Origin: Naegleria gruberi
Lineage: Eukaryota
Assembly: GCA_000004985.1 (NCBI GenBank)
Contig: GG738846.1
Reading direction: 5' to 3' (one strand)
Length of the DNA stretch: 64,000 nucleotides
The notes under the pieces are model-generated. The model did not search any database. It was not told where the DNA came from and saw only the letters and a list, made by a program, of their open reading frames with translations. The stretch's first letter is position 1. Each line of letters opens with the position of its first letter. This document shows positions 1 through 58,826 of this stretch, piece after piece. The position numbers were made by a program, and so were the translations under genes.

Positions 1-1
1 A

Positions 2-1187: not shown

Positions 1188-1253
1188 AATTTGAGCATGT
1201 TGATCTCAGTATGCTATTGAGATATTATTTGTACTGAGTTGAATATTCCACAC

Positions 1254-35274: not shown

Positions 35275-38200
35275 TTATTCCAAAACCAAACTAATTCCTC
35301 TTTCAGAACAAACTTTGTGTAAACTATCAATTTCTTTCCATCCAATGAGAACCAATTTCTTTAAGGAAGGTGTGTTGTTCTTATTCTTCAACCAATCTAT
35401 CAAAACATTAACGCCAATAGATTGAGGAGATCCACTCAATGTCAAACACTTGATCTTTTTGTTATTTCTCAAATTCTGAATAATTAATGAAAATTCTATC
35501 GAGTCAATAAATTGGTCACATCCTGTGAAATTCAAACTGGCTGGTGTCTTTTTGATTGCTTTCAAAAAGTCTTCCTTTTGATCATCTTCAATAATATATG
35601 AACCAGCTTGTTTGAAATATTGTATCAATTCAAATGTTTCATCAGTTGTAATAACTCCCAAATCATCAATAAGATCTTCGAAAATATCAGATGCAGAATA
35701 TAATAATTCATTATCTGCTGCTGACAATCTTGGAGTAACAAATGTTGAGTTTGGAGGAGAGTTCACTTTTGGTGTGGTTGGACTTCTTGGAGGACCTGTG
35801 CTGCTAATAAATGATCTTCTGTGTCTTCTAGGAGAGCTTGTATTTGCACTATTGAAAACTGTATCTGCTACCTTATTTGTAAAGTTATTTGGATCAAAGT
35901 GGAATCTTGAGCTTCTTGGAGTTGGAGATAATAATCTGGCTGACATTGGTGGCTCATCATTATTTCCTCTTCTCGAAAGAGCAGAGAAGAAGATTTCCTT
36001 AGTAATGGTAGGGACTGATTCATTGTGATTTTTCTTCACATCTTGAGTATTGATGGTGGAAGGAATTTCCACTTCCTTGTTCATTTGTTGTTGAGGAGTA
36101 TTTGGATTTGAATTGACAATTGCTGCACGAAGTTTTGAATCTGAAAGTTTAAAGTTATTGATTGGACTTGGATGTTGATACATTCTTTCAACACTGGTTG
36201 GAGTTGATGGACTGCTGTATCCTTCTGATTTGTCAATCATGGCAATCTTTTCCTTAAATCTATTCAGTTCATCCTTATTGTTTCCTGAGGCTGATAGTGG
36301 TGTGGCAACAGTAGTTGTGTTTTCACCAGTAGAGAATTTGAGTTTTCCATTCTTTTCCAACTCTTCAAAGAAGAGTTTTAACATGGCATAGAGTGATTTG
36401 GTGTTTCCCTTTTCAATTTCATCGTGAATATAGGAAAATCTTTGGGTATTCTTTGCAATTTTGTGAACAGCTTGAATAAAAGCTTGATGGTTATCATTCT
36501 TTTGGAATTTGTTTGGATTATTCTTATATTTGATAACCTTTCCATAGTATTTCTCCACAATCATGCAAAGTACAGTTCCGTCATCTATAATTTTGTGCAA
36601 TGAATGGCCTTCATCAGGTCTATCTGTAATTTGAAGAATAGTTTCCTTGAAATACTTTTCTTCATCCTCTTCTAACATCTTTTGAGAACTTGTAGCTTTT
36701 TGATAGTAGTGTGTTCTACTAGACATCATTCCTTCAATATTTGCTTGCCTATCTGTAATGGATCCGTCAGAATTTTCTGAAGGAGTACTTGGTGGAATAA
36801 TTGGAGCCTTAGAGAAGGACATGCTTCCAAAGCTTTTTGTTCTGGCACTCAACATTGGTCGAGATGGAGATTCCAATGGAAGGAAGATTGAGTGTGATTG
36901 AAGTTTTTTCAAGGATTGAGTTCTAATTTCAGGCTGGGCTGCACATTTAACAGAAAACTCAAAAAGTAGTGCCAAATTACTGACAATACAGTTTCTTTCC
37001 TTTACAGAGCTATGTTCTGGTTCAGTTGATGCCTTTAGTAGATAGTCATGTTCAAATACAGTTGAGATACCAACATTTTTACAGAAATTGGTGTAAAGAG
37101 AAACATTTCCAATAGCAGCTTGGTTATTTGTCATACCTTCAACATATTTCTTACATGGTTCAATCTCAGGGAACAAAGTATTAGCATATTTGCACAAAAT
37201 TACTCCGTCCAATAAATTCTTGAAAAGTGAAATAGATGTGTCATATTCATTTCCAGCTAATTTCAGAAGCCATTTTGAAAGAGCTTTCTCTGCGTATTCA
37301 AGTTCTTGACTGCGGAAATCTTCCTTACTTTCAGCATTGAGCTTCTTTCCTGTTCTTAATAAACTAAAAATCGATTTTCCTCTCATCTTTTCATAAGTTT
37401 CTTCGCTAAACTCAAAGCCAGCTTCTTCCATCAACTTCATAAACTTCCAAGTTGGATCATGTTCCTTTGGTGGCAATTCTTTCTTTGGGGTTTTTGGAGT
37501 TTGTGGAGGTTCTTCAGTCTTGACAGGTGGTGGTTTGACTTTTAATAGAGCTAACTTTTTAGTCAATTCTTCTACTCTTCTCAAATGGGAGTTCATCTTT
37601 CCTTCATAGATATTTCCAAGTGATGTACTCATTTCATTCAATTTCTCTATTACTAGATTTTCAGTGTTAGACTGGAATGTAGAAACAAAAGTATTGAAAA
37701 ATGAGTAATCGAGAGGGAAAAGTTCTTTCAACTCAATGTACTTTTTCTTTACATCACTTAATTGAGAATGAACATTTTGGATAGACTTGGTAAGATCTAG
37801 GATTTTTTGCTGGTATTCCTTGGTGATTTCTTCTTTCTCATTTTGAAGTGTTTGATTAGAAGTTTGGAGAGCTTCAATATCTTGCTTTAGTTTCAGCTCT
37901 CGTGTTTTCAAATTTTTGATCTCATTATCGAGCTGGTTGTTATCTGAATCTATGCGATTTTTAAGTTGTTCAACCTCTTCATTCTTGGCACTCAGTTCAT
38001 TTTCAAGTTTTTCGTTGGTGGACTTTTCTTTTTCTAAGGCAGAGCTAGTTTGATCAACCAGTTTTTCAGCTTCTGCAAATTTCTGCTTTAAGTCTTTGAT
38101 AGATAGATCAAGTTTGTGTGATTTTTCTTCTTGTCTATTTTTTTCTTCTTTCACTAGATCGAGTTGCTCCTTGTATGAGTTTTCTATATTCTTGGCTTGT

Positions 38201-41200
38201 TCGACTAATAGCTGATTTGTTTTGTTAAGAGCATCGATTTCAGTTTGCTTTGAGTCGTTTTCACGTTTCATTTGCTGAATATTGGACTCGAGATTTCTTT
38301 GAGTTTCCTGAGATTCTCTAGCTAATGATTCATAAGCGGTCTTTTGTTGCTGTTGTTTATCCTCTACGTCTTGGAGTTGAATGTTCAATTCTTCAAGTTG
38401 TGTTTTAGTCTGGGAAATGTGGTTGTCCATCTTTGCTTTTTCTTCTTCCATTATTGCTATCTTTTCTGCTTGTTGATTGGCTTTTTCTGATAGTGATTTG
38501 TTCTTTTCAGACAAGTCTTTAACCTCCCTTTCCTTAGATGAAATATCATCTTCAAGTTTGGACTTCTCCTTGTTGATTGTTTCCTTATCTTCTTCTAGTT
38601 CTTTAACACGCTTGTTTCTCTTTGTTAAGTCTTCTGATAATTGTTGGAGTTCTTCAGTTGCATTCTTAAAGTCTTTGGACAATTTGTTACTTTCTTGTTC
38701 TAATTTTTCAATTTCAGATTCTTTTGAATTCAATTTCTCCTTGAAACTGTCTTTGGCTTGATCCAAGAGCTCTGATAGCTCTTTTTCTTTAGAGGAAGCT
38801 TTTTGAAGGGAGGCTTGTAACTCTTCTTCTCTTTCTTTAAGATTCTTAATTTCCTTTTCTAGACTCTTGTTGACAGTTTCAAACTTTTCAATATCAGCTT
38901 GGAGCAATACTTGTGTTTGCTTTGTTTCTGAAACAGTATTATTGAGTCTAATCTTTTCTTCTTCAATAAGGTTCTTCAAGGATTCATTTTCTTTTTCAAG
39001 CTTTTCAATCTTTTCCTTCAAACCAGACTCTAAATTGTGACAGTTTGTTTCACAATCGTTTAGCTTTCCATTTTTAACAGAGAGTTCATGCTTCAATTGT
39101 TGAATTTCCTCTTCTAACTTGGTAACATTGAGAGTAGAATTTTGAAGGTTATTGGTTAAGGATCTTTCTTTTTCTTTCAATTTCTCTAATTGTTCTAGAA
39201 GATCAGCAATCTTTTCCTCTGCGCCTTTCTTTTCCTTCCTCAAATTTTGAATAGTATTCTCATGTTCTTCAATTTTATGTTCCATATTTTCTTGTAGCGC
39301 TTTCTTTTCTGATTTAAGGTTGGTTATATCATTCGAAAGTTGTGAAATTTCTTCAGAAAGTTCTTCCTTGTTCTTTTTGATTTGTTGAACTGATTTGTTA
39401 AGGGTTTCTATTTCTATTTCTGCTAATTTCTGATTAGATTTGAACTCTGCCAATTGGTTGTGCAAATTATCTAATTCCTTGCTCTTCTTTTCTAGTTTTT
39501 CTGTTTCATCAGCAAGTAATTTTTCCTTTGTCAGTAGAGTATTTTGTAATTTTTCGTTTTCATGTTTCAATTGGGTATTGTTTTCAGCAACTTCTTGCTC
39601 CTTTTCTTTGCTGAATCCCAAATTTTCTTCTAAATTTTTGTGGGTGCGTCTTTCATTTTCGAGATTGTTCTGGATTTCAACAAGCTTGAGCTCAGTTTCT
39701 TGTAATTTTTGATTTTCAGATATGATCTCATCTTGATGCTTCTTTTGCATATTTGCCATGCCAACTTCCATATCTTGTAGTTGGTTTTGAACTTTCTTCA
39801 TCTCTCTTTCCTTAGACGAAATATCATCTTCAAGTTTGGACTTTTCCTTGTTGATTGTTTCCTTATCTTCTTCTAGTTCTTTAACACGCTTGTTTCTCTT
39901 TGTTAAGTCTTCTGATAATTGTTGGAGTTCTTCAGTTGCATTCTTAAAATCTTTGGACAACTTGTTATTTTCTTTTTCTAATTTTTCAATTTCAGATTCT
40001 TTTGAATTCAGCTTCTCCTTGTACTCTGTAACAACATTTAAGTTACCAGCCTCTGCTTTTTGTAATTCTGTTGAAAGTTTGGAAATTTCCCTTTCTAATT
40101 CTGCTACCTTTTGGCTATTAATTGCATGTTTGCTTTCCTCTTCCTTCAATTTATGTTCATACTGTTTACTTAGTTGATCCAATCTCAAAGAATCATTCTT
40201 TGTCTCCATTAATGCCGATTCTTGTTCAAATTTGTCTTGTTTAAGCTGCTTGATATCTTGTTGAAGTTTGGAAATGGTTTTCTCTAGTTCTTCAATATTC
40301 AGTTTATGTTCTCCTAGCTCCAAATCTTTTTCTGATAATTTTTTAGCTGACAATTTGCCCTTTTCTGTCAAGTCTTGTAAATTCTGTTCTAACAGGGTCT
40401 TGGCAGATTCTAACTCGAAAATCTTTTTTCTTTGTTCAGTCGATATTTTATCACAGTCGGTCTCAAGTTCATTAATTTCTTTTAACTTGTTTTTCAACTT
40501 CTCTCTTGAAGATTCCAACTCATCTTCCAATTGATTCTTTCCTTGCTCAAGTGAATGAATTTGTTTCTTCAAATCGTGTTCGTTTTGAGATTGTTCTTTT
40601 TCTAAAGTTTTCATTTTTTGCATCAATTCATCAACCTCTTGTTGTTTTGCAAGCTTCAATTCATCTAGTTGTTTCTTGAGAAGAATACAATTTTCACAAT
40701 TTGCCTTTTCTGCCAATTTGAGTGTTATATCCTCTATTTCTTTTGTTAATTGTTTGACTTGGTCTTTTAGATTGTTATTTTCGTGTTGTGAATCAGTGTG
40801 TTCAAAATTCTTGAGTTGTGAAATGTAGTTTCCAATTTGAATTTGATAGTCATTTTCGAGTTCTTCAAGCTTTTTCTTTGTTTCTCTCTTTTGGTCATCA
40901 ATCTTGGACATTAATTTGTTCTCAGATTCTTTTAGGTCTGAATTTTCCTTGACAAGATGGTCTAATTTATCTTGTAGCTTCTTCTTTTCGTGATCAACCT
41001 CTTCCTTCAAGTCTGACAACTTGTGTTCAGATGTGATAATCCTAGCACTTAGTTGTTGAATCTCATTATTCTTCTTTCTAATTTCCTCTATGTGAGCTGT
41101 GTCCTTTGCACTGGTCAAGTCTGAGAATTTTGAAATTTCATCTTCCAGATTCTTAATTCTCTTTTCTCTTTCTTGTACAGTGTGTTCCAGTTTCTTTCTA

Positions 41201-44200
41201 GTATCTGCAGTGTCCTGTTGTAACTTGGCTAACTCTTCTTGAGTTTGCTCAACTTGCTTTTTGTAAATGATTAACAAACTCAACTTCTGTTCCATAACAA
41301 GTTTGTTCTCCTTTTCTGATTCCAAGTCAAGCTTTGCTTGGAACAACTCTTTTTCTATCTGCCTGTTCTTTTGTTGTAAATCCTGGAACAAGTTAACATT
41401 AGACTTAGCATCCTCTGTTAGATGGCTATTGGATGATTTGAGAATTTGAATGTTATGATCCAACAAGTTCTTTTCCATCTCCATTTTAGAAGCTTTGGAT
41501 TCCAACTCCAACATGCTAGAATTCATATTCTCTATGGTCTTCTTCAAAGAATTGATAATTGTGTCCTTAGACTGCACACTGTGTTCTGCTTGTTCAAGAG
41601 ATGCCTTTTGTTGATTCATCAATACATTTAAATTCTGTACCTTGATAGATAAGGTACTATCTGATGTTTTGAGATTGTTGAGCTCATCCTGTAACAGCTT
41701 GATTGTTGTTGATTTTTCAGAATTTGATAACTCTATCGTAGAAAGGTAGTGATTAGTCTCTTGTAATTTTAGCTTTAGCTTTTCCACTTCTTCTTTGTGT
41801 TGTTGAGATTGTTCATGGATGGAAGATTTAAGTTTACGCTTTTTCTCCTTAGAGATGGCTATTTGATTGTCCTTACTTTCTAGTTGGGACTTGAATTGTT
41901 GAAGTGTTGAATTGAGGCGTTCAGTTTCATTCAATAGCTTGTTTTCCTTTTTTCTTAATAAGTCTATTATCTCCGTAACCATATATCCTGTTTCTGATTC
42001 TTGAAGTACTGTGTCATCTGGAACCAGAGATTTTAGCTTTTTACAAACATCCTCAATTAGTTTGGATTGGTTATCGATATGTTTTGACTTTTCCTTAAGA
42101 ACCTCATTGAGTTTCTTGAAATCTTCTTCTTTTGTCAAACAAGTTTGATTCAACAAAATAATAGATTTTTCTTTTTCATCCAATTTCAACTCCATATTTT
42201 GCAATTGGCTCTTGAGAGAATTCAGATTTTCAGTTAGTTTCCTACTAGATTCCTTTTCTACTTCCAACTCTTTTTTGAGTTGAATGCCTTCTCTTTCTGC
42301 AGAGTGTGTTTTTTCCTTTTGTTTTTCAAGCTCATCTTGTATGGTTTGTTTGGACAAATCAGCTTGTTCTTTAAGCTTTTTGAGATCACTAATCTTGATA
42401 TCTTGACTCTGAATTGACTCTTTTGCGGAGCTCAACTCTCTTTCGAGGTTGCTTTGCAAAGTGAAAAGTTTAGATATCTCATCATCTTTGGATTTTAGTT
42501 TGAGACTAAAGGTTTCCTCTAGTTGTTGTTTTTCGTTTTGGTAAGCATTTTTGTCTTGTTTGAGTTGTTGCTTTAGTTCATCTATTAATGCATCAGAAAT
42601 GGAAATCTTACTTTGAAGAGATTCAATGGATTGCTTGTCGGAGAGAATAGAGCGATTCAATTTTAATAGCTCATCGTTGTGCTTACTTTCAAGAGACCTC
42701 TTTTGTTCATCCAAATTTTCAACTTGGTCCTTCAAGGTCTTAATCTTATCTTTCTTTGTTTTGATAGTATTTTTCAATTCATCCACTTTACATTTCAGTG
42801 CTTCAATTTGTTCTTGCAAAGATGTAGATTTTTCCTCACAATTAGTAAGTTTTTCACTCAAAGACTGGTTAATTGAGAATTTGGATGCATTCAAATCACT
42901 GATATCCTTATTTTGCTTTTCTTTTTCAGCTAACTCTTTGATGAATTTTTGAGAGAGTGATTCATTTTGTTTCTCACTTTGCTCCAATTTTTGATTTAAA
43001 TGGTTGATCAAGTTATCCTTCTTGAATAAATCATCTAACAAACAATTATTGCTCTCTTTGAGTTTGTCCAGTTTGGATTGTAAATCTAAAATTTTTTCAT
43101 CTAGGTTATTCTTAGCCGTTTTAAGAGATTCGTTTTCTTTTTTTTCATTTCCAAGTGCAATGTTGGATGAGGTTAATAGTCTCTCCACTTCAATTTTGGC
43201 AAGATCAGATTGTGAGAGTTTGATTGATAGATCCTTTGTTTGTTTTTTCAAATCCTCTACTTGCTCCAGTAGTTGTTCTATTTCTTTCTTATCAACAGTA
43301 TTGCATTTTAGAGCCTTGGCAAGCTCTATTTCCAGCTCATTAATTTTTTTAGAAAACTCCCGTATTTCTGCTTCATACTTCTGCACTTGTTGTCTGGAGT
43401 TGGTTAAAACAGCCTCTATTTTCTCTTTTTCTTCCTGAATTTGCTCCTTTTCAGATTCAGATTCTCGCAACTCTTTTTCTAATCTTTCCAAATCAGAGTT
43501 CAAAGAAATATTTATCTTTTTCTTCAAACTGGTGTTAGCTTCTTCGAGTTCGTTATTTTTGTTGGTGAGATCTGAAATTTTCCTTTCATTCTCTTCAATA
43601 GTGTTTTTCAAATTTTGATTAACACGATCCAGTTTGCTTTTTTCTGACTTGCTAGTTTCTAGTTCTTCTATGATGTTTGACAGTTTAGACTCGACATTTC
43701 TTTTCATATCTGTTGATGCAGAGACTTCAATCGTAGAATTTTGAAGATCAATCTTCAGATTAGTATTTTCTTGTAAAACTTGCGTATATTTGTGTTGCCA
43801 GTCTCTTGCATTTATACTGGCCTCTTCGAGATCTCCAGATATTCTCTTATTTTCCTTACTTTTTTCATACAATTCTGAATTTAACTTTTCAATATCTGAA
43901 AAATGTTGAATTAATAGAGTGTGCTTTTCTTTCAGCTCCTTTGTAAGCTCGTTGATTTTAGTTTCTTTCGAAAATAATTCCTCTGAATGATCTTTGTCTA
44001 ACTTGTGAAAATCTTGTTGTTTTTTCTCCAACAATTCCTTTAGTTTTGTAATCTCTTGATCTCTTTCATGTAAATAAATTAATTGTCTTTCCAACTCCAT
44101 AGCTTTTTCCTTCAGCTTCCAAGAAACCTCTTCAAATTTCAAATGATTTTCCCTAGATGCTTGTAAAATTAGTACCATTTGTTGTGTGAAATAATCATAG

Positions 44201-44661
44201 AGACCTTTCACCAACTCAGAATAGTCTTTTTTCAATTTTTCAAACTTGTTTCTCAACTTGACAATATTCCTTGCCAATTCTTCAATAATTTCCCAAAGAG
44301 ATGTCTGATACCCGAAACGAACATTTTCCATCAATTCATTCAATTGTTGAACACAAACTTCCTGCTCCCCTAGAGATTGCAACAATATTTCTTTAATTCT
44401 CTTATCCCTCTCCACAGTAGCAATCAGTTTATTCTCAAACTCCTCATGAATATCACTAATCTTATCATCAATTATTTTCTTCTGAATGAAAAGATCGGCC
44501 ACTGATACCGAACCATCATCAGATGGAGCAACAATACTCGATGTATCATCTATTATTATACTCCTACGTTTAAAATTTGATGCAGATGATGAGGGTGATA
44601 ACGAAGCTCCTCTCATTAGAAATTCATCATCACTCTCCTGAATTCGGAAAGCATCCATCAT
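35275..44661 (-). CDS. Giant protein of about 3129 aa. It has a roughly 2400-aa N-terminal coiled coil, two calponin-homology-like domains and a C-terminal LRR-like region.
   Basis: Single uninterrupted ORF. The first ATG is at 44661 (the ORF track starts at a TTG at 44703). The heptad-rich E/K/L sequence runs throughout. A CH-like stretch reads …WLLKLAGNEYDTSISLFKNLLDGVILCKYANTLFPE…NVSLYTNFCKNVGI…, and a second one reads …LHKIIDDGTVLCMIVEKYYG…AFIQAVHKIAKN… The C-terminus …IKCLTLSGSPQSIGVNVLIDWLKNKNNTPSLKKLVLIGW… is LRR-like. Confidence 0.65.
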   Translation of the reverse strand: MMDAFRIQESDDEFLMRGASLSPSSSASNFKRRSIIIDDTSSIVAPSDDGSVSVADLFIQKKIIDDKISDIHEEFENKLIATVERDKRIKEILLQSLGEQEVCVQQLNELMENVRFGYQTSLWEIIEELARNIVKLRNKFEKLKKDYSELVKGLYDYFTQQMVLILQASRENHLKFEEVSWKLKEKAMELERQLIYLHERDQEITKLKELLEKKQQDFHKLDKDHSEELFSKETKINELTKELKEKHTLLIQHFSDIEKLNSELYEKSKENKRISGDLEEASINARDWQHKYTQVLQENTNLKIDLQNSTIEVSASTDMKRNVESKLSNIIEELETSKSEKSKLDRVNQNLKNTIEENERKISDLTNKNNELEEANTSLKKKINISLNSDLERLEKELRESESEKEQIQEEKEKIEAVLTNSRQQVQKYEAEIREFSKKINELEIELAKALKCNTVDKKEIEQLLEQVEDLKKQTKDLSIKLSQSDLAKIEVERLLTSSNIALGNEKKENESLKTAKNNLDEKILDLQSKLDKLKESNNCLLDDLFKKDNLINHLNQKLEQSEKQNESLSQKFIKELAEKEKQNKDISDLNASKFSINQSLSEKLTNCEEKSTSLQEQIEALKCKVDELKNTIKTKKDKIKTLKDQVENLDEQKRSLESKHNDELLKLNRSILSDKQSIESLQSKISISDALIDELKQQLKQDKNAYQNEKQQLEETFSLKLKSKDDEISKLFTLQSNLERELSSAKESIQSQDIKISDLKKLKEQADLSKQTIQDELEKQKEKTHSAEREGIQLKKELEVEKESSRKLTENLNSLKSQLQNMELKLDEKEKSIILLNQTCLTKEEDFKKLNEVLKEKSKHIDNQSKLIEDVCKKLKSLVPDDTVLQESETGYMVTEIIDLLRKKENKLLNETERLNSTLQQFKSQLESKDNQIAISKEKKRKLKSSIHEQSQQHKEEVEKLKLKLQETNHYLSTIELSNSEKSTTIKLLQDELNNLKTSDSTLSIKVQNLNVLMNQQKASLEQAEHSVQSKDTIINSLKKTIENMNSSMLELESKASKMEMEKNLLDHNIQILKSSNSHLTEDAKSNVNLFQDLQQKNRQIEKELFQAKLDLESEKENKLVMEQKLSLLIIYKKQVEQTQEELAKLQQDTADTRKKLEHTVQEREKRIKNLEDEISKFSDLTSAKDTAHIEEIRKKNNEIQQLSARIITSEHKLSDLKEEVDHEKKKLQDKLDHLVKENSDLKESENKLMSKIDDQKRETKKKLEELENDYQIQIGNYISQLKNFEHTDSQHENNNLKDQVKQLTKEIEDITLKLAEKANCENCILLKKQLDELKLAKQQEVDELMQKMKTLEKEQSQNEHDLKKQIHSLEQGKNQLEDELESSREKLKNKLKEINELETDCDKISTEQRKKIFELESAKTLLEQNLQDLTEKGKLSAKKLSEKDLELGEHKLNIEELEKTISKLQQDIKQLKQDKFEQESALMETKNDSLRLDQLSKQYEHKLKEEESKHAINSQKVAELEREISKLSTELQKAEAGNLNVVTEYKEKLNSKESEIEKLEKENNKLSKDFKNATEELQQLSEDLTKRNKRVKELEEDKETINKEKSKLEDDISSKEREMKKVQNQLQDMEVGMANMQKKHQDEIISENQKLQETELKLVEIQNNLENERRTHKNLEENLGFSKEKEQEVAENNTQLKHENEKLQNTLLTKEKLLADETEKLEKKSKELDNLHNQLAEFKSNQKLAEIEIETLNKSVQQIKKNKEELSEEISQLSNDITNLKSEKKALQENMEHKIEEHENTIQNLRKEKKGAEEKIADLLEQLEKLKEKERSLTNNLQNSTLNVTKLEEEIQQLKHELSVKNGKLNDCETNCHNLESGLKEKIEKLEKENESLKNLIEEEKIRLNNTVSETKQTQVLLQADIEKFETVNKSLEKEIKNLKEREEELQASLQKASSKEKELSELLDQAKDSFKEKLNSKESEIEKLEQESNKLSKDFKNATEELQQLSEDLTKRNKRVKELEEDKETINKEKSKLEDDISSKEREVKDLSEKNKSLSEKANQQAEKIAIMEEEKAKMDNHISQTKTQLEELNIQLQDVEDKQQQQKTAYESLARESQETQRNLESNIQQMKRENDSKQTEIDALNKTNQLLVEQAKNIENSYKEQLDLVKEEKNRQEEKSHKLDLSIKDLKQKFAEAEKLVDQTSSALEKEKSTNEKLENELSAKNEEVEQLKNRIDSDNNQLDNEIKNLKTRELKLKQDIEALQTSNQTLQNEKEEITKEYQQKILDLTKSIQNVHSQLSDVKKKYIELKELFPLDYSFFNTFVSTFQSNTENLVIEKLNEMSTSLGNIYEGKMNSHLRRVEELTKKLALLKVKPPPVKTEEPPQTPKTPKKELPPKEHDPTWKFMKLMEEAGFEFSEETYEKMRGKSIFSLLRTGKKLNAESKEDFRSQELEYAEKALSKWLLKLAGNEYDTSISLFKNLLDGVILCKYANTLFPEIEPCKKYVEGMTNNQAAIGNVSLYTNFCKNVGISTVFEHDYLLKASTEPEHSSVKERNCIVSNLALLFEFSVKCAAQPEIRTQSLKKLQSHSIFLPLESPSRPMLSARTKSFGSMSFSKAPIIPPSTPSENSDGSITDRQANIEGMMSSRTHYYQKATSSQKMLEEDEEKYFKETILQITDRPDEGHSLHKIIDDGTVLCMIVEKYYGKVIKYKNNPNKFQKNDNHQAFIQAVHKIAKNTQRFSYIHDEIEKGNTKSLYAMLKLFFEELEKNGKLKFSTGENTTTVATPLSASGNNKDELNRFKEKIAMIDKSEGYSSPSTPTSVERMYQHPSPINNFKLSDSKLRAAIVNSNPNTPQQQMNKEVEIPSTINTQDVKKNHNESVPTITKEIFFSALSRRGNNDEPPMSARLLSPTPRSSRFHFDPNNFTNKVADTVFNSANTSSPRRHRRSFISSTGPPRSPTTPKVNSPPNSTFVTPRLSAADNELLYSASDIFEDLIDDLGVITTDETFELIQYFKQAGSYIIEDDQKEDFLKAIKKTPASLNFTGCDQFIDSIEFSLIIQNLRNNKKIKCLTLSGSPQSIGVNVLIDWLKNKNNTPSLKKLVLIGWKEIDSLHKVCSERGISLVLE
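38528..38756. repeat. Copy 1 of a near-identical 230-bp intragenic direct repeat (the partner lies at about 39798-40026)
   Basis: The DNA at 38528-38756 and at 39798-40026 is nearly identical on reading. It encodes …LNSKESEIEKLE(K/Q)E(N/S)NKLSKDFKNATEELQQLSEDLTKRNKRVKELEEDKETINKEKSKLEDDISSKERE… twice. The ORF track's antisense ORFs at 38477 and 39836 carry identical peptides, which confirms the duplication. Confidence 0.85.
39798..40026. repeat. Copy 2 of the near-identical 230-bp intragenic direct repeat
   Basis: See copy 1. The two copies lie about 1.27 kb apart inside the same coiled-coil CDS. Confidence 0.85.
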
Positions 44662-44683
44662 CTGAAGTGAAGATTCCGAATAT

Positions 44684-45118
44684 CTATTCGAACGAGCGTT
44701 CAACCTCTGTAAAGTAGGACTCGTCTTGTTGATTACTTTGCTGTACTACAGCAAGAGAAAACCTTCTATTAATTTCATTGGTATCATTATTATTATTTTG
44801 AGTTGGATTGTTTTTTTCTTCTTTTAAATTTTTGGCGCCAATATTTCCATCACCACTTTCACTGTTATTATTTAGATTCATACTACTCCTATTGGACTTT
44901 GATTTACTATTATTACTTGTACTATCATCTTTGGAATGTGAAGAAGGTGTTTGTTCCGTCTTCTGATTGTTGTTTTTTAGGATTTTAGAAATGATGAAGG
45001 AAACAATGACAAGTGCACTGGCAAGTGCCATTAGAAACCAAGTGTTAGTTTGGCCAACTACTACAGACTCATCATCAAACTCTGAGATATGAAATGTTTG
45101 TTGAGCATTCTGTGACAT
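44684..45118 (-). CDS. Small hypothetical membrane protein of 144 aa, with an N-terminal signal-anchor TM helix and an N/S/K-rich tail
   Basis: The ATG is at 45118. The TM helix is WFLMALASALVIVSFIISKIL. The stop lies only 22 nt upstream of the giant gene's ATG (see findings). Confidence 0.4.
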   Translation of the reverse strand: MSQNAQQTFHISEFDDESVVVGQTNTWFLMALASALVIVSFIISKILKNNNQKTEQTPSSHSKDDSTSNNSKSKSNRSSMNLNNNSESGDGNIGAKNLKEEKNNPTQNNNNDTNEINRRFSLAVVQQSNQQDESYFTEVERSFE

Positions 45119-46876: not shown

Positions 46877-48002
46877 ATGGAAGTTGATGTTTTTGGTGAT
46901 AATAAAGACGGTCAGGCTAGGAATGCGATCGTAACGAAGGAGGTTACCTATTTTAATCGTCTTTACTATTCAATGTACGTGAAGGATAATACAACAATGG
47001 ATCCAGCTATTCATAAAGAACATCTGGAAATGTTGGTAGGAAATTCTGGCATCCCTGGTTTAACCTTGGCTTCACCACCACCACAGGTACGTTGATCACT
47101 CCATTAATATTGGTTGTTGATCGCATTAATCTATTTGATCTTGTGATTTTATTTGATTTAATCAATTATTATTTAATTGATTCAAATAATTATTAATATA
47201 GAAAAAAAGAAGTATTTCAGAGGTGAACAATACACCATCATCATCTAAACAATCTGTAAATAATACATCATCAAAAAAGAAAAAAACTACCGACAAGATA
47301 TCAAAAATCAAAGTGTACACTTCAAGTTTATTTGACAAAGGACTTTTAGCCTCTGGAGATACTGTAATGTTCAAGCATGATGATAAGGAAATTAAATGTA
47401 AAGTGAATAATCATGGGGAATTGGAGGTCAATAATGCTGATAAAACTGATACGAGAATTTCAAATAATTTGAGAATTATCACACAATTTATTTGTAAAGC
47501 TTATAACTTACCCTTAATGGGAAAATCAAAATATTGGAATTTATTTTATCTAGTTAATAAGAATGGATCTAGGAATAAGCTCAAAACTTTGAGAGAGCAG
47601 TATTTGGCATTACATGAACAGGGAAATTCAAAAGTTGTAGCTGAAAAGAGTGACAAGTCAGAAGAGAAAGAAACTGCCAAGAGAAGAAGAAGAAAACAAG
47701 CTGAAGAAGCCAGCAAGAAGAATGCTCGTTTATTAATTTCTCAATTGGTTAGTAGCGGACTTTTAAAGGATGGTGCTAAAGTAATTTATAGAGGTCAGAA
47801 AACTACTTTTCATGGCAAAATTACAAAGTCCAAATTTATCTCATATTACGACCAACTAACTAAAAGAGAAGAACAATTTGAAACACCCAACTCATTTAAA
47901 TCTCATATTGGTGAACTTGGTAACTGTTGGCAACAAATGGTTCTCGTTGATGATGACCAGGAAATCTCATTCCAAACTTTAAGAGATAAATATTTTGAAT
48001 GA
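46877..48002 (+). CDS. Hypothetical K/R-rich (nuclear-like) protein with an internally duplicated module of about 70 aa. Two exons: 46877..47086 and 47202..48002.
   Basis: The GTACGT donor at 47087 and the AG at 47200-47201 join in frame. The two modules are …SSLFDKGLLASGDTVMFKHDDKEIKCKVNNHGELEV…ISNNLRIITQFICKAYNL… and …LVSSGLLKDGAKVIYRGQKTTFHGKITKSKFISY…NSFKSHIGELGNCWQQMVLV… A KRRRRKQAEEASKK NLS-like block sits between them. Confidence 0.45.
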
Positions 48003-48655: not shown

Positions 48656-50523
48656 ATGTCTCAAGACTCATCAGGACTAAAACAATCAAACGGAAATACT
48701 AAAGATCCACTTGTTGTAAAATTGGAGGCTAACAAGCTCCGACTAGGATGCACAAGAGACGACTATAGAACATTGCAAATTATTGGGAAGGGTTCTTTTG
48801 GACATGTCTTTTTAGCATACTCAATTCATGGAAATCAACCTCATGTCGCTATAAAGAAAATAGACAAGGAATTACTACTGAATGACTATAATGTTGATCG
48901 TTTAAATAGTGAAATAACTATTCACCTGAATATGAATCACGAAAATATTGTGGAATTATATCTTTATTTTGAACAAAATAATTCTTATTATCTAGTGATG
49001 GAGTATTGTAAAGGAGGTGATATGTATAAATTCTTGAAAAAACAAAAAACCTTTAATGAAGCCCAATCAAAACATTACTTGACACAAATTGTGAATGCAC
49101 TGATATATTTACAATCGTTCGGAGTGGTTCACAGGGATCTCAAAGTATGTACACTATATCATTAGAATCAATTTAATGTTTTTAAAGCTTTCTAACATTT
49201 TACTAACTGAAGACCAGCAACAAATCAAATTATCAGACTTTGGACTCTCCACAAAGCTTGATAGTGTTGATGGAGAGCAAAGCACTATTCTAGGAACGCC
49301 AAATTATATGGCCTAGTAAGTTTTTAATCAATTTTTAACCAACACCATTCAGTGAAATTGTAAATAAGATGAATTATGGAATGAAGGTAGATAATTGGGC
49401 TCTAGGTTGTATATTATTTACATTTTTGGTTGGTGAATCTCCATTTGATGAAGGAAGTAGAACTCAAACGTTTGATAAGATTAGAAAATTGGATTACAAG
49501 ATTCCTGATTTTGTCTCTAAAAATGCAAGAGATTTGATTGAAAAACTTCTGCATCCAGATCCTACCAAACGTATTTCCCTTATCGAATGTAAATCTCACC
49601 CTTTTCTAAGAGAATCTATTCCAAAGCCTATTCAAACTAATGGATTCAATTCTAACTCAAGGGCAAAAACACAGGAAGAGATTTCATCCACAATTACCAA
49701 GACTCCATTCAATACCATTAGAATTAAACCATTCACTCACAAGAAGAACGATATTCATATAGAGATTAATGAAACAGGGAATGTATTCTTGACATTTAAT
49801 AATGGAGACAGAAGATTTATTGTTTCAGGAGATGGAAAAACGATATGGTATGAAAAGAAAGCATCAAGGCGGAAAGAGTTCTCCTTCTTTGAAATGCCAT
49901 CATCAGTAGAAAAATACTATGAATATGCCAGAAATTTAATTGACACTATTAAGAGTAAGACTCCAAAAATAATATACCTAGATACTGATTTCAAATGTAT
50001 TCAAATGGAAAATCATCCATTTCCTGATTATGAAACATCACTCTTTCCATCGGGTATCAGAATGGTGTATCAAAGAAGAAAAAGCATGGTCATTGTGAGA
50101 TTTTCTAAGGAAAGATCTGTTTCAATTCACCTCAACAAGGACCTCACATTATTCAAAGAAGAAATGGATCTCATAGATAATCACAAAATTGTAAAAGTAG
50201 AAGGATCACTAACTGTTGAAGAGAGCGAAATTCTTTTCAATAACTCTGTTCTGTGGTCCAGTTTAGGCCATGTAAAGAAAGGTATTGATCTCATAGAACA
50301 AGCAGAGAGAGAAATGGCGATCGATTCTTATCCATTCTTTATCAATGCAACCAGTAACACATCTGGTCCTCTAAGTCCAACCCTAAGTGATACCAGTACA
50401 ACAAGTAGTAACAATTCCTCTACACTGAATCGTTGTTTACTTTCATCTCTTTCCTTCTCCACCAACAACAGTGAATCCAACCCACCAGATGATAGTAGCT
50501 TTTCTAATCCACATTTCTATTAA
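48656..50523 (+). CDS. Polo-like kinase of the PLK4/SAK type, with two polo-box-like repeats at the C-terminus. Three exons: 48656..49144, 49188..49315, 49353..50523.
   Basis: The kinase domain reads IGKGSFGHVF…AIKKIDK…HRDLK|LSNILLTEDQQQIKLSDFGLST…GTPNYMA|YEIV…DNWALGCILFTFLVGESPF. The 'LSN' after HRDLK and the overall similarity point to PLK4 (…[28 protein letters not shown]). The C-terminal …IRIKPFTHKKNDIHIEINETGNVFLTFNNGDRRFIVSGDGKTIWYEK… and a second similar block resemble a cryptic polo box. Introns are 43 and 37 nt. Confidence 0.7.
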
Positions 50524-51124: not shown

Positions 51125-52036
51125 TTAGGCTTCTTCATCACCAATTCGATTGTTAGAAATATCAAGTGATGTTAATTGTTTCATTTCACTTATTGATTTG
51201 GCTTCTTCATCACCAATTCTATTTCCACCAATATTAAGTGATTTTAATTGTTTCATGTCAATTATTGATTTGGCTCCTTCATCACCAATTCGATTGTTAT
51301 AAACATTAAGTGATGTTAATTGATTCATTCCACTTATAGACTTGGCTCCTTCATCACCAATTCGATTTCCACTAATATCAAGTGATGTTAATTGATTCAT
51401 TCCACTTATGAATTTGGCTCCTTCCTCACCAATTTGATTGAAATAAATATCAAGTGATGTTAATTGTTTCACTTCAATTATTGATTTGGCTCCTTCATCA
51501 CCAATTTGATTTCCACTAATATCAAGCGATGTTAATTGATTCATTTCACTTATTGACTTGGCTCCTTCATCACCAATTTGATTGTAATAAACACTAAGTG
51601 ATGTTAATTGTTTCATTTCACTTATGAATTTGGCTCCTTCATCACCAATTCCATTTTCATCAATAGTAAGTGATTTTAATTGTTTCATTTCACTTATGAA
51701 TTTGGCTTGTTCTATAGAGTCAAGCAACCTTCTCGAAAATTTAACATTTTCAATACTATTCATAAATTGACTTGTCATGAATAATTTAATTCGTTTCTCT
51801 GTAAATTTTTTTTTGAATTCAATAACAAGTTTTGAACGTTCCTTGATCACATTAAAGAATTGTTTTGAAATCAAGGAACAATTATTCAAAATAAACCACG
51901 AATCATCAATCATGGAAATTATTTCAAAACAAACATCATCTGAAAATATTTCTTGGAGCACAAGTTTTTTCTTTTTTCTTTTCTTATTTTTGATCCGAAA
52001 TTGCTTTTTAAAATCTTGAATGCTTCGTTTGCTCAT
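51125..52036 (-). CDS. Leucine-rich-repeat protein of the RNI/NLRC3 type, with an F-box-like N-terminus and about 8 tandem 24-aa repeats
   Basis: The 24-aa (72-bp) unit ISEMKQLTSLDISGNQIGDEGAKS is reiterated tandemly from about 51130 to 51720. The N-terminus LVLQEIFSDDVCFEIISMIDDSWFIL is F-box-like. The ATG is at 52036. Confidence 0.65.
   Translation of the reverse strand: MSKRSIQDFKKQFRIKNKKRKKKKLVLQEIFSDDVCFEIISMIDDSWFILNNCSLISKQFFNVIKERSKLVIEFKKKFTEKRIKLFMTSQFMNSIENVKFSRRLLDSIEQAKFISEMKQLKSLTIDENGIGDEGAKFISEMKQLTSLSVYYNQIGDEGAKSISEMNQLTSLDISGNQIGDEGAKSIIEVKQLTSLDIYFNQIGEEGAKFISGMNQLTSLDISGNRIGDEGAKSISGMNQLTSLNVYNNRIGDEGAKSIIDMKQLKSLNIGGNRIGDEEAKSISEMKQLTSLDISNNRIGDEEA
51130..51720. repeat. 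Tandem 72-bp coding repeats (the LRR array)
   Basis: The DNA pattern 'caagtgatgttaattg(t/a)ttcat…ggctccttcatcaccaat' shows a 72-nt periodicity. Confidence 0.85.
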
Positions 52037-54023: not shown

Positions 54024-54833
54024 TTAAAGAACTTGCCAATGTTCTTCAAAAGCACAACAAACTTTCATGCAAACCATAGCACCTGATAATGGATAACTCG
54101 ATATCGAAACATATTCGTCTACATAATCAACTTTCAAATCACCACGAGCAAAGGCACCAATAACGAAAACCATTGGTCCATCTTCTGAAATGTCAGTAGG
54201 ATCTTGTGATGGTTTCTTATTGACCATAGCTCTTTGTTTAGCACATAAAACTGGAACATATTCCTCCAAACGAACAACAGTTTCTTGATTATATTCTGCA
54301 GCAACTTTCAATGCAGTTGATGGTAAATGTTCTGTAATTGGATTTTTGATAACTTTAAACAAAACTGCTTCTGTTTCAGATGCCTTGATTTTGTGTTTGA
54401 AAAGCAATTGAACCATCAAACCTGCAAAACGTTTATAAGTACGAGGAACACGAGTATGTGGATTAACTTCTATCAATGTATTATCAGCAGTATGCATGTA
54501 AACTTGTAAAAGACCTGCCTTACTTATCGGAGAGTCAAAAAGTGAAAGTAAACATTGATGAACGACATCAGGTCTGTAATCATCTGGATTCTTTCCATGT
54601 TTTGATAAATAGGTACGATGATCATCACTGTTTAATAATTTATATTTTTCTCCAATTTTACCAACTTCAAGAGGACAATTTTCCAAAACTACAATCAATC
54701 TTCTCTTACTTTCCTTTTCCACATATTTCTTTGCTTGGAGTGTCTTTGCTTCCTTTGAAACTTTATCAGCAGCACCCGATGGTGTAGAATTTGATGAAGA
54801 AGTGTGTTTACGTTCTCTTTGTTGTTTTGGCAT
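54024..54833 (-). CDS. EMG1: Ribosome biogenesis methyltransferase EMG1/Nep1 (SPOUT fold)
   Basis: …RLIVVLENCPLE…RPDVVHQCLLSLFDSPISKAGLLQVYMHTADNTLIEVNPHTRVPRTYKRFAGLMVQLLFKHKIKA… matches the conserved Nep1 core (RPDI.HQCLL.L.DSPLNKAG…IPRTF.RF.GLMVQLL). Confidence 0.8.
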   Translation of the reverse strand: MPKQQRERKHTSSSNSTPSGAADKVSKEAKTLQAKKYVEKESKRRLIVVLENCPLEVGKIGEKYKLLNSDDHRTYLSKHGKNPDDYRPDVVHQCLLSLFDSPISKAGLLQVYMHTADNTLIEVNPHTRVPRTYKRFAGLMVQLLFKHKIKASETEAVLFKVIKNPITEHLPSTALKVAAEYNQETVVRLEEYVPVLCAKQRAMVNKKPSQDPTDISEDGPMVFVIGAFARGDLKVDYVDEYVSISSYPLSGAMVCMKVCCAFEEHWQVL

Positions 54834-54989: not shown

Positions 54990-57437
54990 TTAATAATAAA
55001 AATCATAGTCTAATTTGACGAGTGTGTTCCTAGTATCATCCTTTGTCAACTTGTTGAAAATTGTGTTGAAAGAATGCTTGTAACCAACAGCTATTATCTT
55101 CTTGTTGGCATCTTCAAGTTTAGTGTAGAGAATTACACCACCTACTTTCATATCTTTGATTTGATCATTTTCAAAAACAAGTTTACCTTCTGTTAAGAAT
55201 TGTTTGAGTTCTTGTTTGGAAATTTCAATTAATTGTTTAGATTCTGGTTCAATATAATCAAATAATGAAACAGCTCCTGCTAAAGTAATTTGATATTTTC
55301 CACTATCAATATCAAAGGCAATATTACCAGCATTGAAAAACTTGAGCATCAAAGAGTCATTGTAAGTATAGTTACTTCTCAAATAATTGCTCAAATATCT
55401 ATTGGAAATAAAATTGATTTTTTTAGGTGTGGGAATGCTTTCCAAGGTACTTTGAGTATTGTTCTTATCTACTTGTTGCAAATGCTTGACATATTTGCTT
55501 TCACCAGTGGTTTGAATGATAAAGTTTCCAATATCAATATCAATGGATTTTTTGAATTCATAGAAATTAAAAACATGATTCAAAATTTCTGGTAAAACTC
55601 TGACGTAAATGTTATGCTTCAAATTTTGCTTTTGATTATTGCCTTTCTCTTGGTTGGCTTTCTTCTTGTTCAATTTTTGTTGTAATTTTCTTTGTCTCTT
55701 TGTTTTTTCTTCTGCAGAGTTAATCTTTTTCAATCTCAACTTGGCAACATAAAAACCACCAGAATTATTCATGTGTGGCAAAATTCTCATTGTATATTGC
55801 AAGTTCATATCCTTGATGTCATCCTTAATAAACATACTTGGTTGAATCTTTTTACATCCTTCCTTCTTTGGCATGTTTTCAGACTTGTCACCACTCTTGA
55901 TTGTAAATTCAATACTGGTATCCTGAATATCCTCGAACTTTTCAACAACATTTCCCAAACTATCTACAACTTTCCAATCATTAATACCCTTCAAATATTT
56001 AATATTATTATTGATATTTTGTAATGATGTTTCCAAATCAACTAATTCAAATCTATAATTTGTTTTTCTAATAGCTTCAGCAACAACTGCTTCATCTTCA
56101 ATAGGGTTTAAACTACATGTTGAATATACAATTTCATATTCTCCATCGTACTTGATTAATTTAAGGCTACTATTTTCAGTGGTGATTTCTTCAGTTGTTT
56201 CACCACTAGTATTTTCATCCAAACTAGTGTTTTCATTATTGAAACTGGTTAACATAATTTGCATAGCAGAAACCAAGATGGAAACTTGGGTAGCATGATT
56301 GTGGTGACCATGATCATATGTCCATCTTTCCCACAAATCACGTGACTTACGAAGAGTACCATCACCTGAACATACAGCATCACACAAGATGTGATGAATA
56401 TGAGAAAGAACTTGACCATTCAAACTACTAGAAGACAATTGTTGATGCAATGTTACTGCATTGTAATGACTGATTACTACATTGTTAGTAAATTGGTTAG
56501 GTTCTCTATTCAAATTAGAAAATAAGGTACCCAATCTCTTTCTATCAATATCATTACAAATTAAAAATTTGGAATAATCTCCTTGATTCAAATAATATTC
56601 AACCATTTGAGCAGATTTGCTTCCTGGTGCTGAACACATATCCAAATATCCATCTACAAGTTTACCATTAACTACCTCACTACTATCAGATGATTCAACT
56701 TGTAAGGAATTTTCATCTTGAGGAGTAAAACACAATGGAGGAATCATACTGACAAGTTCTTGTCTACTAATATATCCAATGTCTGTTAATTTAACAAGAT
56801 ATTCTCTGAACTCTCTCAAAACTGCTTGTCCTTCAGCTACTCTAGTATCACTACTGACAATTGTATTGTCTGCTGATGCATCAAATTGTTGAATATCATC
56901 ATCATCATTTTCCGATGATTTTCTCAGTTTAGTCTTGGAAATATTAGGATGAATTTGATAAAATAATTGATTAATGTGATTCAAGTTAATAATATCAATA
57001 GTATTTCCATCATTTTCTTGTTCTTTAGGTAAAATTTTACCTTCCAAATAAATATAATTATTTAATTTCAACTTGAATTCGTTCAACTTGTTTTGAATCT
57101 TTTCAATCAAGTCCAATGGAAGTGATTTGTTGATACGGAATGTTGTTGGAAGAGGTTCTTGGAATGATTTAATCATTTCATCCATCTCTTCCTTTGTCTT
57201 TACTATTTGCTGAATATTAAAATAATAATTATAGAACATGGCATTCTCTGGAATGATATCTTCGTAGCCTCTTTTAACTTTCTTTTGTTGTTGACAAATT
57301 TCATCATTACCATTTTCCGCCACTACACTCACACATTCACATTTATTTTCCAAATCTTCATCACCAGTTGTTGTGCTTCTTTCTTGACGTTTTCCCAACA
57401 AATTATTGTCGGAAGATGTTATTTCTTCTGATGACAT
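54990..57437 (-). CDS. NOL1/NOP2/Sun-family RNA (cytosine-5)-methyltransferase, NSUN2/Trm4-like
   Basis: The SAM-binding motif is LDMCSAPGSKSAQMVEY. The catalytic Cys motifs are …ILCDAVCSGDGTLRK… (PC motif) and …IVYSTCSLNPIEDEAVV… (TC motif). Single exon of 815 aa with an ATG at 57437. Confidence 0.8.
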   Translation of the reverse strand: MSSEEITSSDNNLLGKRQERSTTTGDEDLENKCECVSVVAENGNDEICQQQKKVKRGYEDIIPENAMFYNYYFNIQQIVKTKEEMDEMIKSFQEPLPTTFRINKSLPLDLIEKIQNKLNEFKLKLNNYIYLEGKILPKEQENDGNTIDIINLNHINQLFYQIHPNISKTKLRKSSENDDDDIQQFDASADNTIVSSDTRVAEGQAVLREFREYLVKLTDIGYISRQELVSMIPPLCFTPQDENSLQVESSDSSEVVNGKLVDGYLDMCSAPGSKSAQMVEYYLNQGDYSKFLICNDIDRKRLGTLFSNLNREPNQFTNNVVISHYNAVTLHQQLSSSSLNGQVLSHIHHILCDAVCSGDGTLRKSRDLWERWTYDHGHHNHATQVSILVSAMQIMLTSFNNENTSLDENTSGETTEEITTENSSLKLIKYDGEYEIVYSTCSLNPIEDEAVVAEAIRKTNYRFELVDLETSLQNINNNIKYLKGINDWKVVDSLGNVVEKFEDIQDTSIEFTIKSGDKSENMPKKEGCKKIQPSMFIKDDIKDMNLQYTMRILPHMNNSGGFYVAKLRLKKINSAEEKTKRQRKLQQKLNKKKANQEKGNNQKQNLKHNIYVRVLPEILNHVFNFYEFKKSIDIDIGNFIIQTTGESKYVKHLQQVDKNNTQSTLESIPTPKKINFISNRYLSNYLRSNYTYNDSLMLKFFNAGNIAFDIDSGKYQITLAGAVSLFDYIEPESKQLIEISKQELKQFLTEGKLVFENDQIKDMKVGGVILYTKLEDANKKIIAVGYKHSFNTIFNKLTKDDTRNTLVKLDYDFYY

Positions 57438-57644: not shown

Positions 57645-58826
57645 ATGCTCAATCCAAATCATCAACACGAACACGAACATCATCACGGATGTGGTTGTTC
57701 CGATCATCACCATCACGAAGAAGAAGAAGAGGAGGACGAAGAAGAAAATAATCAAATGAATGATGAAGAGGAAAATTTACAACCATCAAGACCAATTTCT
57801 ACTTTTAATTTGGAGACTACACTTGATGATAAGGAACCATTACCTTTGGATCAAAAGCCTATTGCTTGTATTGTTTTGGGTATGGCTGGAAGTGGTAAAA
57901 CAACAATTATGCAAAGAATTAATGCCTATATTCATGAAAAGGGTCATCCTTCTTATATTGTAAATTTGGATCCTGCTGTATTGGACGTTCCTTATGGAGC
58001 ACATATTGATATTAGAGATACTGTCAATTATAAGGAGGTTATGAAACAATTTAGTTTGGGACCAAATGGAGGAATTTTAACAGCACTTAATTTATTCTCA
58101 ACTCGTTTCGATCAAGTTGTGGATTTGATTGATAAAAAAGCAAGAGTTGGTTTTCAAAATTCAGAAGAGCCAACCTTTAGAAAGAAGAAACTGGATTATG
58201 TATTTATTGATACACCAGGTCAAATTGAAATTTTTACTTGGTCTGCCAGTGGTCAAATTATTTCAGAAGGATTGGCAACATCTTTCCCAACCTGTATCAT
58301 TTATGTTATAGACACTCCAAGAAATACTAGTCCAATTACATTCATGTCAAACATGTTATATGCCTGCTCAATTCTGTATAAGACTCGTTTGCCATTCCTT
58401 ATTGTTTTTAATAAGATTGATGTGGTGAGACATGACTTTATCAATGAATGGATGAAAGATTTTGAAGCATTCCAAGATGCTCTTGCTAAGGATGAAAGTT
58501 ATAGTAGTTCATTGGCTCATTCTATGAGTTTAGTATTGGATGAATTTTATGAAAATATTGACACTGTTGGTGTGAGTGCAATGACAGGAGAAGGTGTTGA
58601 AGAAATGTTCAAGCTAATTGATGGAAAATGTAAAGAATATGAGGAGACATACTACCAAGAATTACTCGAAAAGGAAAAAGAAAGAGAAAAAGCAAAACTA
58701 GAGAAACAAGATGAAGATATTCGAAGATTAGAACAAGATTTTAGACGTTTTAATACTGCTGGAAAGAAGCAACCAAAAACAGAAGATGAAGAATTACAAG
58801 ATTTCCTCCAAGATATAAAGAAATAA
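57645..58826 (+). CDS. GPN1: GPN-loop GTPase 1 (XAB1/Npa3)
   Basis: P-loop [13 protein letters not shown]. The GPN motif is …[10 protein letters not shown]… There is a conserved NKIDVV G4-like motif and a C-terminal K/E-rich tail. The N-terminus is His-rich. Confidence 0.85.

Follow-up and report, generated by a model that had tools for sequence, protein, structure and literature searches.

Naegleria is a classic system for de novo centriole assembly: its basal bodies are assembled de novo with conserved SAS-6 and SAS-4 (PMC4819266), and its basal-body genes are transcribed de novo. A review of 2016 stated that a Plk4 had yet to be recognised in the Naegleria genome, and considered that PLK4 is perhaps restricted to opisthokonts, with PLK1 as a possible substitute (PMC4819266); nothing further on PLK4 was found in later centriole reviews that mention Naegleria. 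A kinome-scale tree, by contrast, placed the N. gruberi kinase NGRU000632 in OG062B 'PLK4', a group at the level of the last common ancestor of eukaryotes (LECA), with hidden Markov model (HMM) scores of 409 versus 231 bits; the same group also takes in kinases of Guillardia (GTHE021132), Klebsormidium (KFLA002319) and Thecamonas (van Wijk & Snel 2020, bioRxiv 10.1101/2020.01.27.920793, supplement). An mBio paper of 2024 also treats PLK4 as a LECA group, absent from Kinetoplastea. Here we describe a PLK4-like kinase gene at 48656-50523 on the plus strand of a 64,000-nucleotide stretch of Naegleria gruberi contig GG738846.1, the whole of which is referred to below as the window. The first-pass annotation of the window had remarked that PLK4 is generally described only from opisthokonts. 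The centriole literature does take this view (PMC4819266), but the kinome tree of 2020 already contains N. gruberi NGRU000632, which is very probably the window gene or its orthologue.

The described systems with which the window protein was compared are animal PLK4 and Drosophila SAK (human kinase domain, PDB 3COK/4JXF; cryptic polo box (CPB), 4N7V, 4N9J, 6N45, 4G7N and 4NK7), Caenorhabditis elegans ZYG-1 (CPB structure 4NKB), and the PLK1-type kinases human PLK1, Cdc5 and PLK2. Human PLK4 was the best kinase match in the PDB (232 bits). With 595 aa, however, the window protein is shorter than fly and human PLK4, which are about 770-970 aa long. It also differs from animal PLK4 in lacking the third polo box (PB3) and the DSGxxT beta-TrCP degron, in having AYE in place of SPE at the end of the activation segment, and in reading HRDLK where human PLK4 has HRDLT. 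The comparison with ZYG-1 was made at the CPB, where sequence identity is just 15%. With PLK1-type kinases only one box aligns with the C-terminus of the window protein, and hence the arrangement of the PLK1 polo-box domain (PBD) is not shared.

Gene structure, kinase domain and cryptic polo box

The gene consists of three exons separated by introns of 43 and 37 nt, and its reading frame is intact: the spliced coding sequence of 1788 nt is translated into 595 aa without internal stops. Behind the kinase domain come a linker, a pair of polo boxes and a short tail rich in Ser and Thr. When the sequence was re-read, the coordinates, the intron sizes (37-43 nt) and the exon 2-3 junction given in the first-pass annotation all proved to be correct. 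The features of the gene, all on the plus strand, are as follows.

48656 (+): start codon ATG
48656..49144 (+): exon 1 (M1-K163), encoding an N-terminal extension and the N-lobe of the kinase up to HRDLK; GKGSFG at aa 44-49, VAIK at aa 64-67
48764..49608 (+): protein kinase domain, aa 37-291 (Pfam Pkinase, E 4.5e-71); the span takes in both introns
49145..49187 (+): intron 1, 43 nt, GTATGT...AAAG, phase 0
49188..49315 (+): exon 2 (L164-A205 and 2 nt of codon 206), LSNILLT, DFG at aa 180-182, T-loop Thr196 (49284-49286), GTPNYMA and TA
49311..49356 (+): AYE motif in place of (A/S)PE; Ala205 (49311-49313), Tyr206 (49314-49315 and 49353), Glu207 (49354-49356)
49316..49352 (+): intron 2, 37 nt, GTAAGT...TCAG, phase 2, splitting the Tyr206 codon TA/T
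49353..50523 (+): exon 3 (final nt of codon 206 to Y595 and TAA stop), encoding the C-lobe of the kinase, the linker, PB1, PB2 and the tail
49609..49701 (+): 31-aa linker that joins the Pfam kinase domain to PB1, without a DSGxx[ST] degron
49702..49950 (+): polo box 1 (PB1) of the CPB, aa 323-405 (Pfam Plk4_PB1, AlphaFold2 model, structural matches)
49957..50355 (+): polo box 2 (PB2) of the CPB, aa 408-540; KSKTPK...C.QMEN...D(Y/F)E signature, terminal helix and YPFFINA
50356..50520 (+): 55-aa C-terminal tail, rich in Ser/Thr and predicted to be disordered; conserved motif STLNRCLLSSLS at 50419-50454

In a collection of 5.8 billion sequences, the closest proteins were FDP41_004920 of N. fowleri (P0001; 594 aa, 69% identity), ABK040_000818 of Willaertia magna (P0002; 47%) and a JGI metagenome protein (41%). 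P0001 is collinear with the window protein, the N-terminus included. The heterolobosean orthologues (P0001, P0002, P0003/P0293 and EP00761_P012556 of Pharyngomonas kirbyi, P0207) all resemble the window protein in having a kinase domain, a short linker and a CPB and in lacking PB3. They were deposited as 'hypothetical protein' or 'aurora kinase', and Plk4_PB2 is already assigned to those of N. fowleri and Willaertia in the precomputed Pfam annotation. The exact 595-aa protein had no entry in a collection of 15 billion sequences, and the homologue search returned no protein with at least 90% identity; the public gene model at 48656-50523 may be missing, withheld or different.

N. fowleri also has an intron at the site of intron 1. 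Since the Willaertia gene is intronless there and reads HRDLKLSNILL contiguously, the exon 1/2 junction is confirmed. Judging from its sequence, the locus is an intact, spliced gene of a PLK4-family (SAK/ZYG-1-type) Ser/Thr kinase.

When the kinase domain was searched against the PDB with phmmer, four chains of human PLK4 scored 229-232 bits, followed by PLK1 (184), PLK2 (176) and Aurora A (174), and the margin of PLK4 over PLK1 was 47 bits. The order was reversed for P0012, a PLK1-like control, which scored 286 bits against PLK1 and 197 bits against PLK4. The catalytic signatures GKGSFG (aa 44), VAIK (aa 64), HRDLK (aa 159), LSN (aa 164), DFG (aa 180), Glu207 and DNWALG (aa 219) are kept, and Thr196 of the T-loop aligns with the Thr preceding LCGTPNY in human PLK4. 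With all signatures except the APE proline present, the kinase core is predicted to be catalytically competent. The string HRDLK-LSN-ILLT had initially been regarded as diagnostic of PLK4. This view could not be upheld, because human PLK4 differs there and the true PLK1-like protein P0012 reads HRDLKLSNLFIT. The evidence that argues for PLK4 identity is instead the score margin over the whole domain together with the CPB.

In the C-terminal region, Pfam matches to Plk4_PB1 and Plk4_PB2 stand in the expected order, and the latter (aa 408-486) scored 32.4 bits, above the cut-off of 26.9. When the C-terminal 286 aa were compared with the whole PDB, chains of the PLK4 CPB were the sole matches (E 8e-10). 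The alignment showed that the window protein and the PLK4 family have the CPB signatures NT.R.KP, Y.YA....KSKTPK, C.(L/Q)MEN...D(F/Y)E and (F/Y)P..I in common. An AlphaFold2 model was built for aa 310-595, which are encoded by exon 3 alone. The predicted local distance difference test (pLDDT) values were above 90 for PB1, which was modelled as six strands and a helix, about 65-85 for PB2, and 29-42 as block means for the tail. The top 11 matches of this model in Foldseek were all PLK4 CPBs (E 7e-11 to 3e-8), and PLK1 PBDs came after them with E values of about 2.5e-4 and a TM score of 0.26. Sequence and model agree in placing a tandem PB1-PB2 CPB downstream of the kinase domain. The description of the protein as a PLK4/SAK-type kinase with two polo boxes was thus borne out by Pfam, by the PDB scores, and by AlphaFold2 and Foldseek.

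No PB3 was found in the window protein: the 55 aa after PB2 are too short for it, there was no match to a PB3 HMM, and there was no match to Pfam POLO_box at E<=1. The PB3 HMM detects PB3 in 88 of the 99 other CPB proteins, and it had no match in any of the five heterolobosean proteins. The comparison of the C-terminus with the CPB and PB3 of PLK4, which had been proposed in the first-pass annotation, therefore recovered the former but not the latter. Neither DSGxx[ST] nor D[ST]Gxx[ST] occurs anywhere in the five heterolobosean proteins. Counted in the linker, DSGxx[ST] is present in none of the five as compared with 50 of the 101 other CPB-bearing kinases, so that the degron is not universal in the family. 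The linker, delimited by HMM envelopes, measures 16-37 aa in the five heterolobosean proteins, in contrast to a median of 143 aa in the 101 others, animal and fungal PLK4 included.

The tail motif STLNRCLLSSLS (aa 562-573) has the counterparts STLNRCLLSTIS in N. fowleri and SALNKCLVSSLS in Willaertia, and S(T/A)LN(R/K)CL(L/V)S is common to Naegleria and Willaertia; the motif is not conserved in Pharyngomonas. AlphaFold2 gave a low-confidence helix at this position. The motif might be a candidate docking or phospho-regulatory element that replaces PB3. A word-index homologue search with the C-terminal 284 aa gave no match, not even to N. fowleri, which probably reflects the limit of a word index on a low-complexity tail; repeated with the CPB alignment, the search returned 7 fragments.

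The AYE motif and its distribution

Codon 206 (TA/T, Tyr) is read across intron 2 to give GTPNYMA-Y-EIV. The splice sites of intron 2 are the sole GT-AG combination with an open frame: with the next donor (49320), TAG/TAA remains in frame, and use of the next acceptor creates TAA. A CCN codon at position 206 is obtainable from none of the GT-AG pairs at the exon 2/3 junction, and no junction in the sequence can give APE.

The three closest proteins carry AFE, AYE and AYE, in the order given above. The N. fowleri gene reads GCT TT/gtaagt...acag/T GAG (AFE) and the Willaertia gene GCA TA/gtaagt...atag/T GAA (AYE), both with the intron at the position and in the phase of the window gene. An intronless metagenomic open reading frame (ORF; contig L003, 1141-2787), the translation of which is the exact protein, reads GCC TAT GAA (AYE) contiguously, and a second member of the intronless metagenomic cluster also has MAYE.

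The first-pass annotation had read the motif correctly as AYE and had left two options for it, a genuine variant or a mis-called splice site or sequence error. A normal APE masked by such an error, or by decay of the gene to a pseudogene, might be suspected since an intron interrupts the Tyr codon, which hence depends on the junction call, made here from genomic sequence. However, N. fowleri (TT/T, Phe) and Willaertia (TA/T, Tyr) have the same intron and phase with different nucleotides, two intronless relatives read MAYE, one of them contiguously at the DNA level, and the rest of the reading frame is intact and conserved over its full length. We put the probability of an artefact close to nil; the motifs of the relatives and the lack of any other open GT-AG pair effectively exclude a splice or sequence error. 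Since AYE or AFE is found in three relatives, one of which is intronless, the Tyr is a genuine, conserved feature of the lineage.

In the 178 full-length kinase domains collected for this analysis, the aligned column of the APE proline contains Pro in 174; apart from the window protein, only the three proteins closest to it have Tyr or Phe there. Among 87 of the top CPB-bearing kinases, 80 have SPE and 4 have APE, and Tyr or Phe occurs solely in N. fowleri, Willaertia and P0003. The orthologues therefore differ at this position, with Tyr in the window protein, Willaertia and P0003/P0293, Phe in N. fowleri, and Pro in the deep-branching heterolobosean Pharyngomonas kirbyi, which keeps SPE. This fact implies that the proline was lost after the Naegleria/Willaertia branch had split from Pharyngomonas. 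As far as the aligned sequences indicate, Tyr/Phe at the APE proline is a fixed trait of the Naegleria/Willaertia branch. With an aromatic residue at this site, the anchor of the activation segment (the start of the alpha-EF helix) is probably packed differently, and activity would not be abolished. The fixed Tyr/Phe constitutes a natural experiment on a residue that is nearly invariant in the sampled kinase domains.

The metagenomic contig with the intronless gene (Ga0506606_002801 of JGI metagenome 3300057138, here L003) is compact, with four closely spaced called genes. Its PLK4-like kinase, annotated as 'aurora kinase', ends directly after PB2 and has no tail. The source of the contig is probably an unsampled heterolobosean lineage.

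Family membership, descent and putative role

As a whole, the locus is likely to be best explained as a minimal PLK4-family kinase, composed of a kinase domain, a short linker, a CPB and a disordered tail, with a lineage-fixed Tyr/Phe and a putative role as a basal-body trigger. A neighbour-joining (NJ) tree was constructed from the kinase domain only (Kimura distance, 43 taxa, 261 columns, 200 bootstraps). The group of Naegleria, Willaertia and the metagenomic proteins was recovered in 143 of the 200 bootstraps, and in none of them did it join PLK1; the Naegleria/Willaertia branch is long. The grouping with PLK1-like kinases that the first-pass annotation had named as the contrary outcome was thus not observed in the phylogeny it proposed, but the union with PLK4 was not robust either.

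Several points weigh against this reading. A clade of all CPB-bearing kinases was obtained in just 27 of the 200 bootstraps, and the published kinome tree flags its own PLK4 group as polyphyletic (van Wijk & Snel 2020, bioRxiv 10.1101/2020.01.27.920793). The Pfam match to Plk4_PB1 (aa 323-403) scored 22.0 bits, under the cut-off of 26.4 (E 1.8e-4). The centriolar or basal-body role is drawn by analogy from family membership, and the PLK4 partners CEP152/Asl, CEP192/SPD-2 and STIL/Ana2, for which no search was made, may be absent. Since the NJ support for the union with PLK4 is weak, family membership is placed mainly on the CPB and on the score margin of the kinase domain.

A kinase outside the PLK4 family, either PLK1-type or generic CAMK/Aurora-like, with a C-terminus that only superficially resembles polo boxes, would account for the poor union with PLK4 in the NJ tree and for the automatic JGI annotation of the metagenomic relative as 'aurora kinase', and LSN is indeed not specific to PLK4. 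Such an identity is very improbable given the absence of PLK1 groupings among the bootstraps, the lack of a match to Pfam POLO_box (PF00659) with Plk4_PB2 above its cut-off, the restriction of the C-terminal PDB matches to PLK4 CPBs, the shared signatures NT.R.KP, Y.YA...KSKTPK, C.LMEN and FP..I, and the kinase-domain margin in favour of PLK4; a PLK1-type kinase with a chance resemblance to polo boxes is ruled out by the CPB evidence. An ancestor of Heterolobosea could also have received a PLK4-family kinase horizontally, from an early opisthokont such as a zoosporic fungus, and if so, the gene is uninformative on PLK4 in LECA. Of 1093 CPB matches in all, the best 150 were listed and the names of 30 were checked; the named relatives outside Heterolobosea among these were all opisthokonts, the nearest among the matches listed being chytrids, an aphelid, Basidiobolus and an ichthyosporean. 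Among the names checked, CPB proteins outside Heterolobosea with no PB3 match or with short linkers came from animals and chytrids, and no other protists turned up. Besides, PLK4 is reported to be absent from Kinetoplastea, which are the other well-sampled group of Discoba. On the other hand, the gene is present in deep (Pharyngomonas) and derived (Naegleria, Willaertia) heteroloboseans, and no specific donor affinity is seen, because fungal, animal and human PLK4 all give kinase-domain scores of about 230-235 bits. The PLK4 group of the kinome tree also includes the Guillardia, Klebsormidium and Thecamonas members, and the minimal architecture without PB3 and with a short linker is unlike every sampled fungal and animal protein. 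Transfer is disfavoured by the missing donor affinity and by the spread across Heterolobosea as they appear in these sequences, and we regard it as quite unlikely.

If the protein acts as animal PLK4 does, the CPB probably serves to dimerise the kinase and to dock it where assembly takes place, and trans-autophosphorylation of the T-loop would yield an active kinase that promotes formation of the SAS-6 cartwheel. By this analogy, we infer that the PLK4-like kinase would be the missing upstream trigger for assembling basal bodies de novo in Naegleria. Since the degron and PB3 are missing, the kinase level is more likely to depend on the burst of transcription at differentiation than on SCF degradation driven by autophosphorylation or on PB3-STIL binding. 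A fuller account, which we offer tentatively as possible rather than probable, is that a vertically inherited PLK4 orthologue triggers basal-body assembly in Naegleria, that opisthokonts later gained PB3, a long linker and the beta-TrCP degron, and that the change from Pro to Tyr/Phe re-tuned the activation segment functionally in the Naegleria/Willaertia lineage alone. The homologue might instead have been repurposed or weakened, serving in mitosis or other signalling or being a weak kinase or pseudokinase, with PLK1 or another kinase triggering centrioles. The long branch of the kinase domain, the replacement of a near-invariant structural residue and the absence of the modules that link animal PLK4 to STIL and SCF are in line with this, and the review of 2016 suggested PLK1 as a possible holder of the role (PMC4819266). 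However, the catalytic and regulatory residues are intact save for the Pro, the CPB, through which animal PLK4 is targeted to centrioles, shows the strongest conservation outside the kinase domain, and the gene is kept across heteroloboseans that build basal bodies; we regard repurposing or weakening as unlikely, though it deserves consideration.

With the minimal PLK4-family kinase and its CPB, research on centrioles gains a concrete candidate for an upstream trigger. The CPB supports an origin of the PLK4 module before opisthokonts, for which the earlier basis was kinase-domain scores in the supplement of the kinome tree. The minimal architecture may also separate the PLK4 core of kinase domain and CPB from lineage-specific regulation through PB3/STIL binding and the SCF degron. 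These findings are partly anticipated by kinome-scale data and automated annotation. The assignment of NGRU000632 was made from the kinase domain alone, and the CPB, the missing PB3 and degron, and AYE are not described in that supplement (van Wijk & Snel 2020); in the literature, we found no paper describing the CPB, the missing PB3 or degron, or the AYE motif in Naegleria.

Genomic surroundings

The kinase region is AT-rich (31-33% GC). Taken by themselves, this composition and the 69% identity to N. fowleri point to a Naegleria-like heterolobosean, probably N. gruberi or a near relation. Within flanks of about 3-6 kb, the kinase gene alone has matches in N. fowleri or Willaertia. Immediately upstream lies a Lys/Ser-rich ORF of 259 aa (47223-48002, +). 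Its match to the RAMA domain (Restriction Enzyme Adenine Methylase Associated) is sub-threshold, with 33.8 bits where the cut-off is 35.2, and this domain is unusual in a nuclear gene of a eukaryote. On the other strand, just downstream of the kinase gene, a 303-aa protein of tandem LRR_6 (RNI-like) repeats (QLTSL.I..N.IGDEGAKSI) is encoded at 51125-52036 (-) and looks like a member of a repeat-protein family. Farther downstream are three housekeeping neighbours, which show no synteny with the PLK4 locus of N. fowleri.

54024-54833 (-): EMG1/NEP1 methyltransferase
54990-57437 (-): RsmB-F/NOP2-Sun-type methyltransferase
57645-58826 (+): GPN-loop GTPase (ATP_bind_1)

About 4 kb upstream of the kinase gene, an uninterrupted ORF of 3142 aa extends over 35275-44703 (-) and overlaps a region, 38-44 kb, in which the AT skew is strong (-0.3 to -0.4). 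Its one Pfam match is a weak one to the TPR/MLP1_2 coiled coil (E 5.5e-4), and the ORF could encode a giant coiled-coil protein. At the left end of the window (1-2000), the GC content falls to 15.8%, as compared with 30-34% elsewhere.

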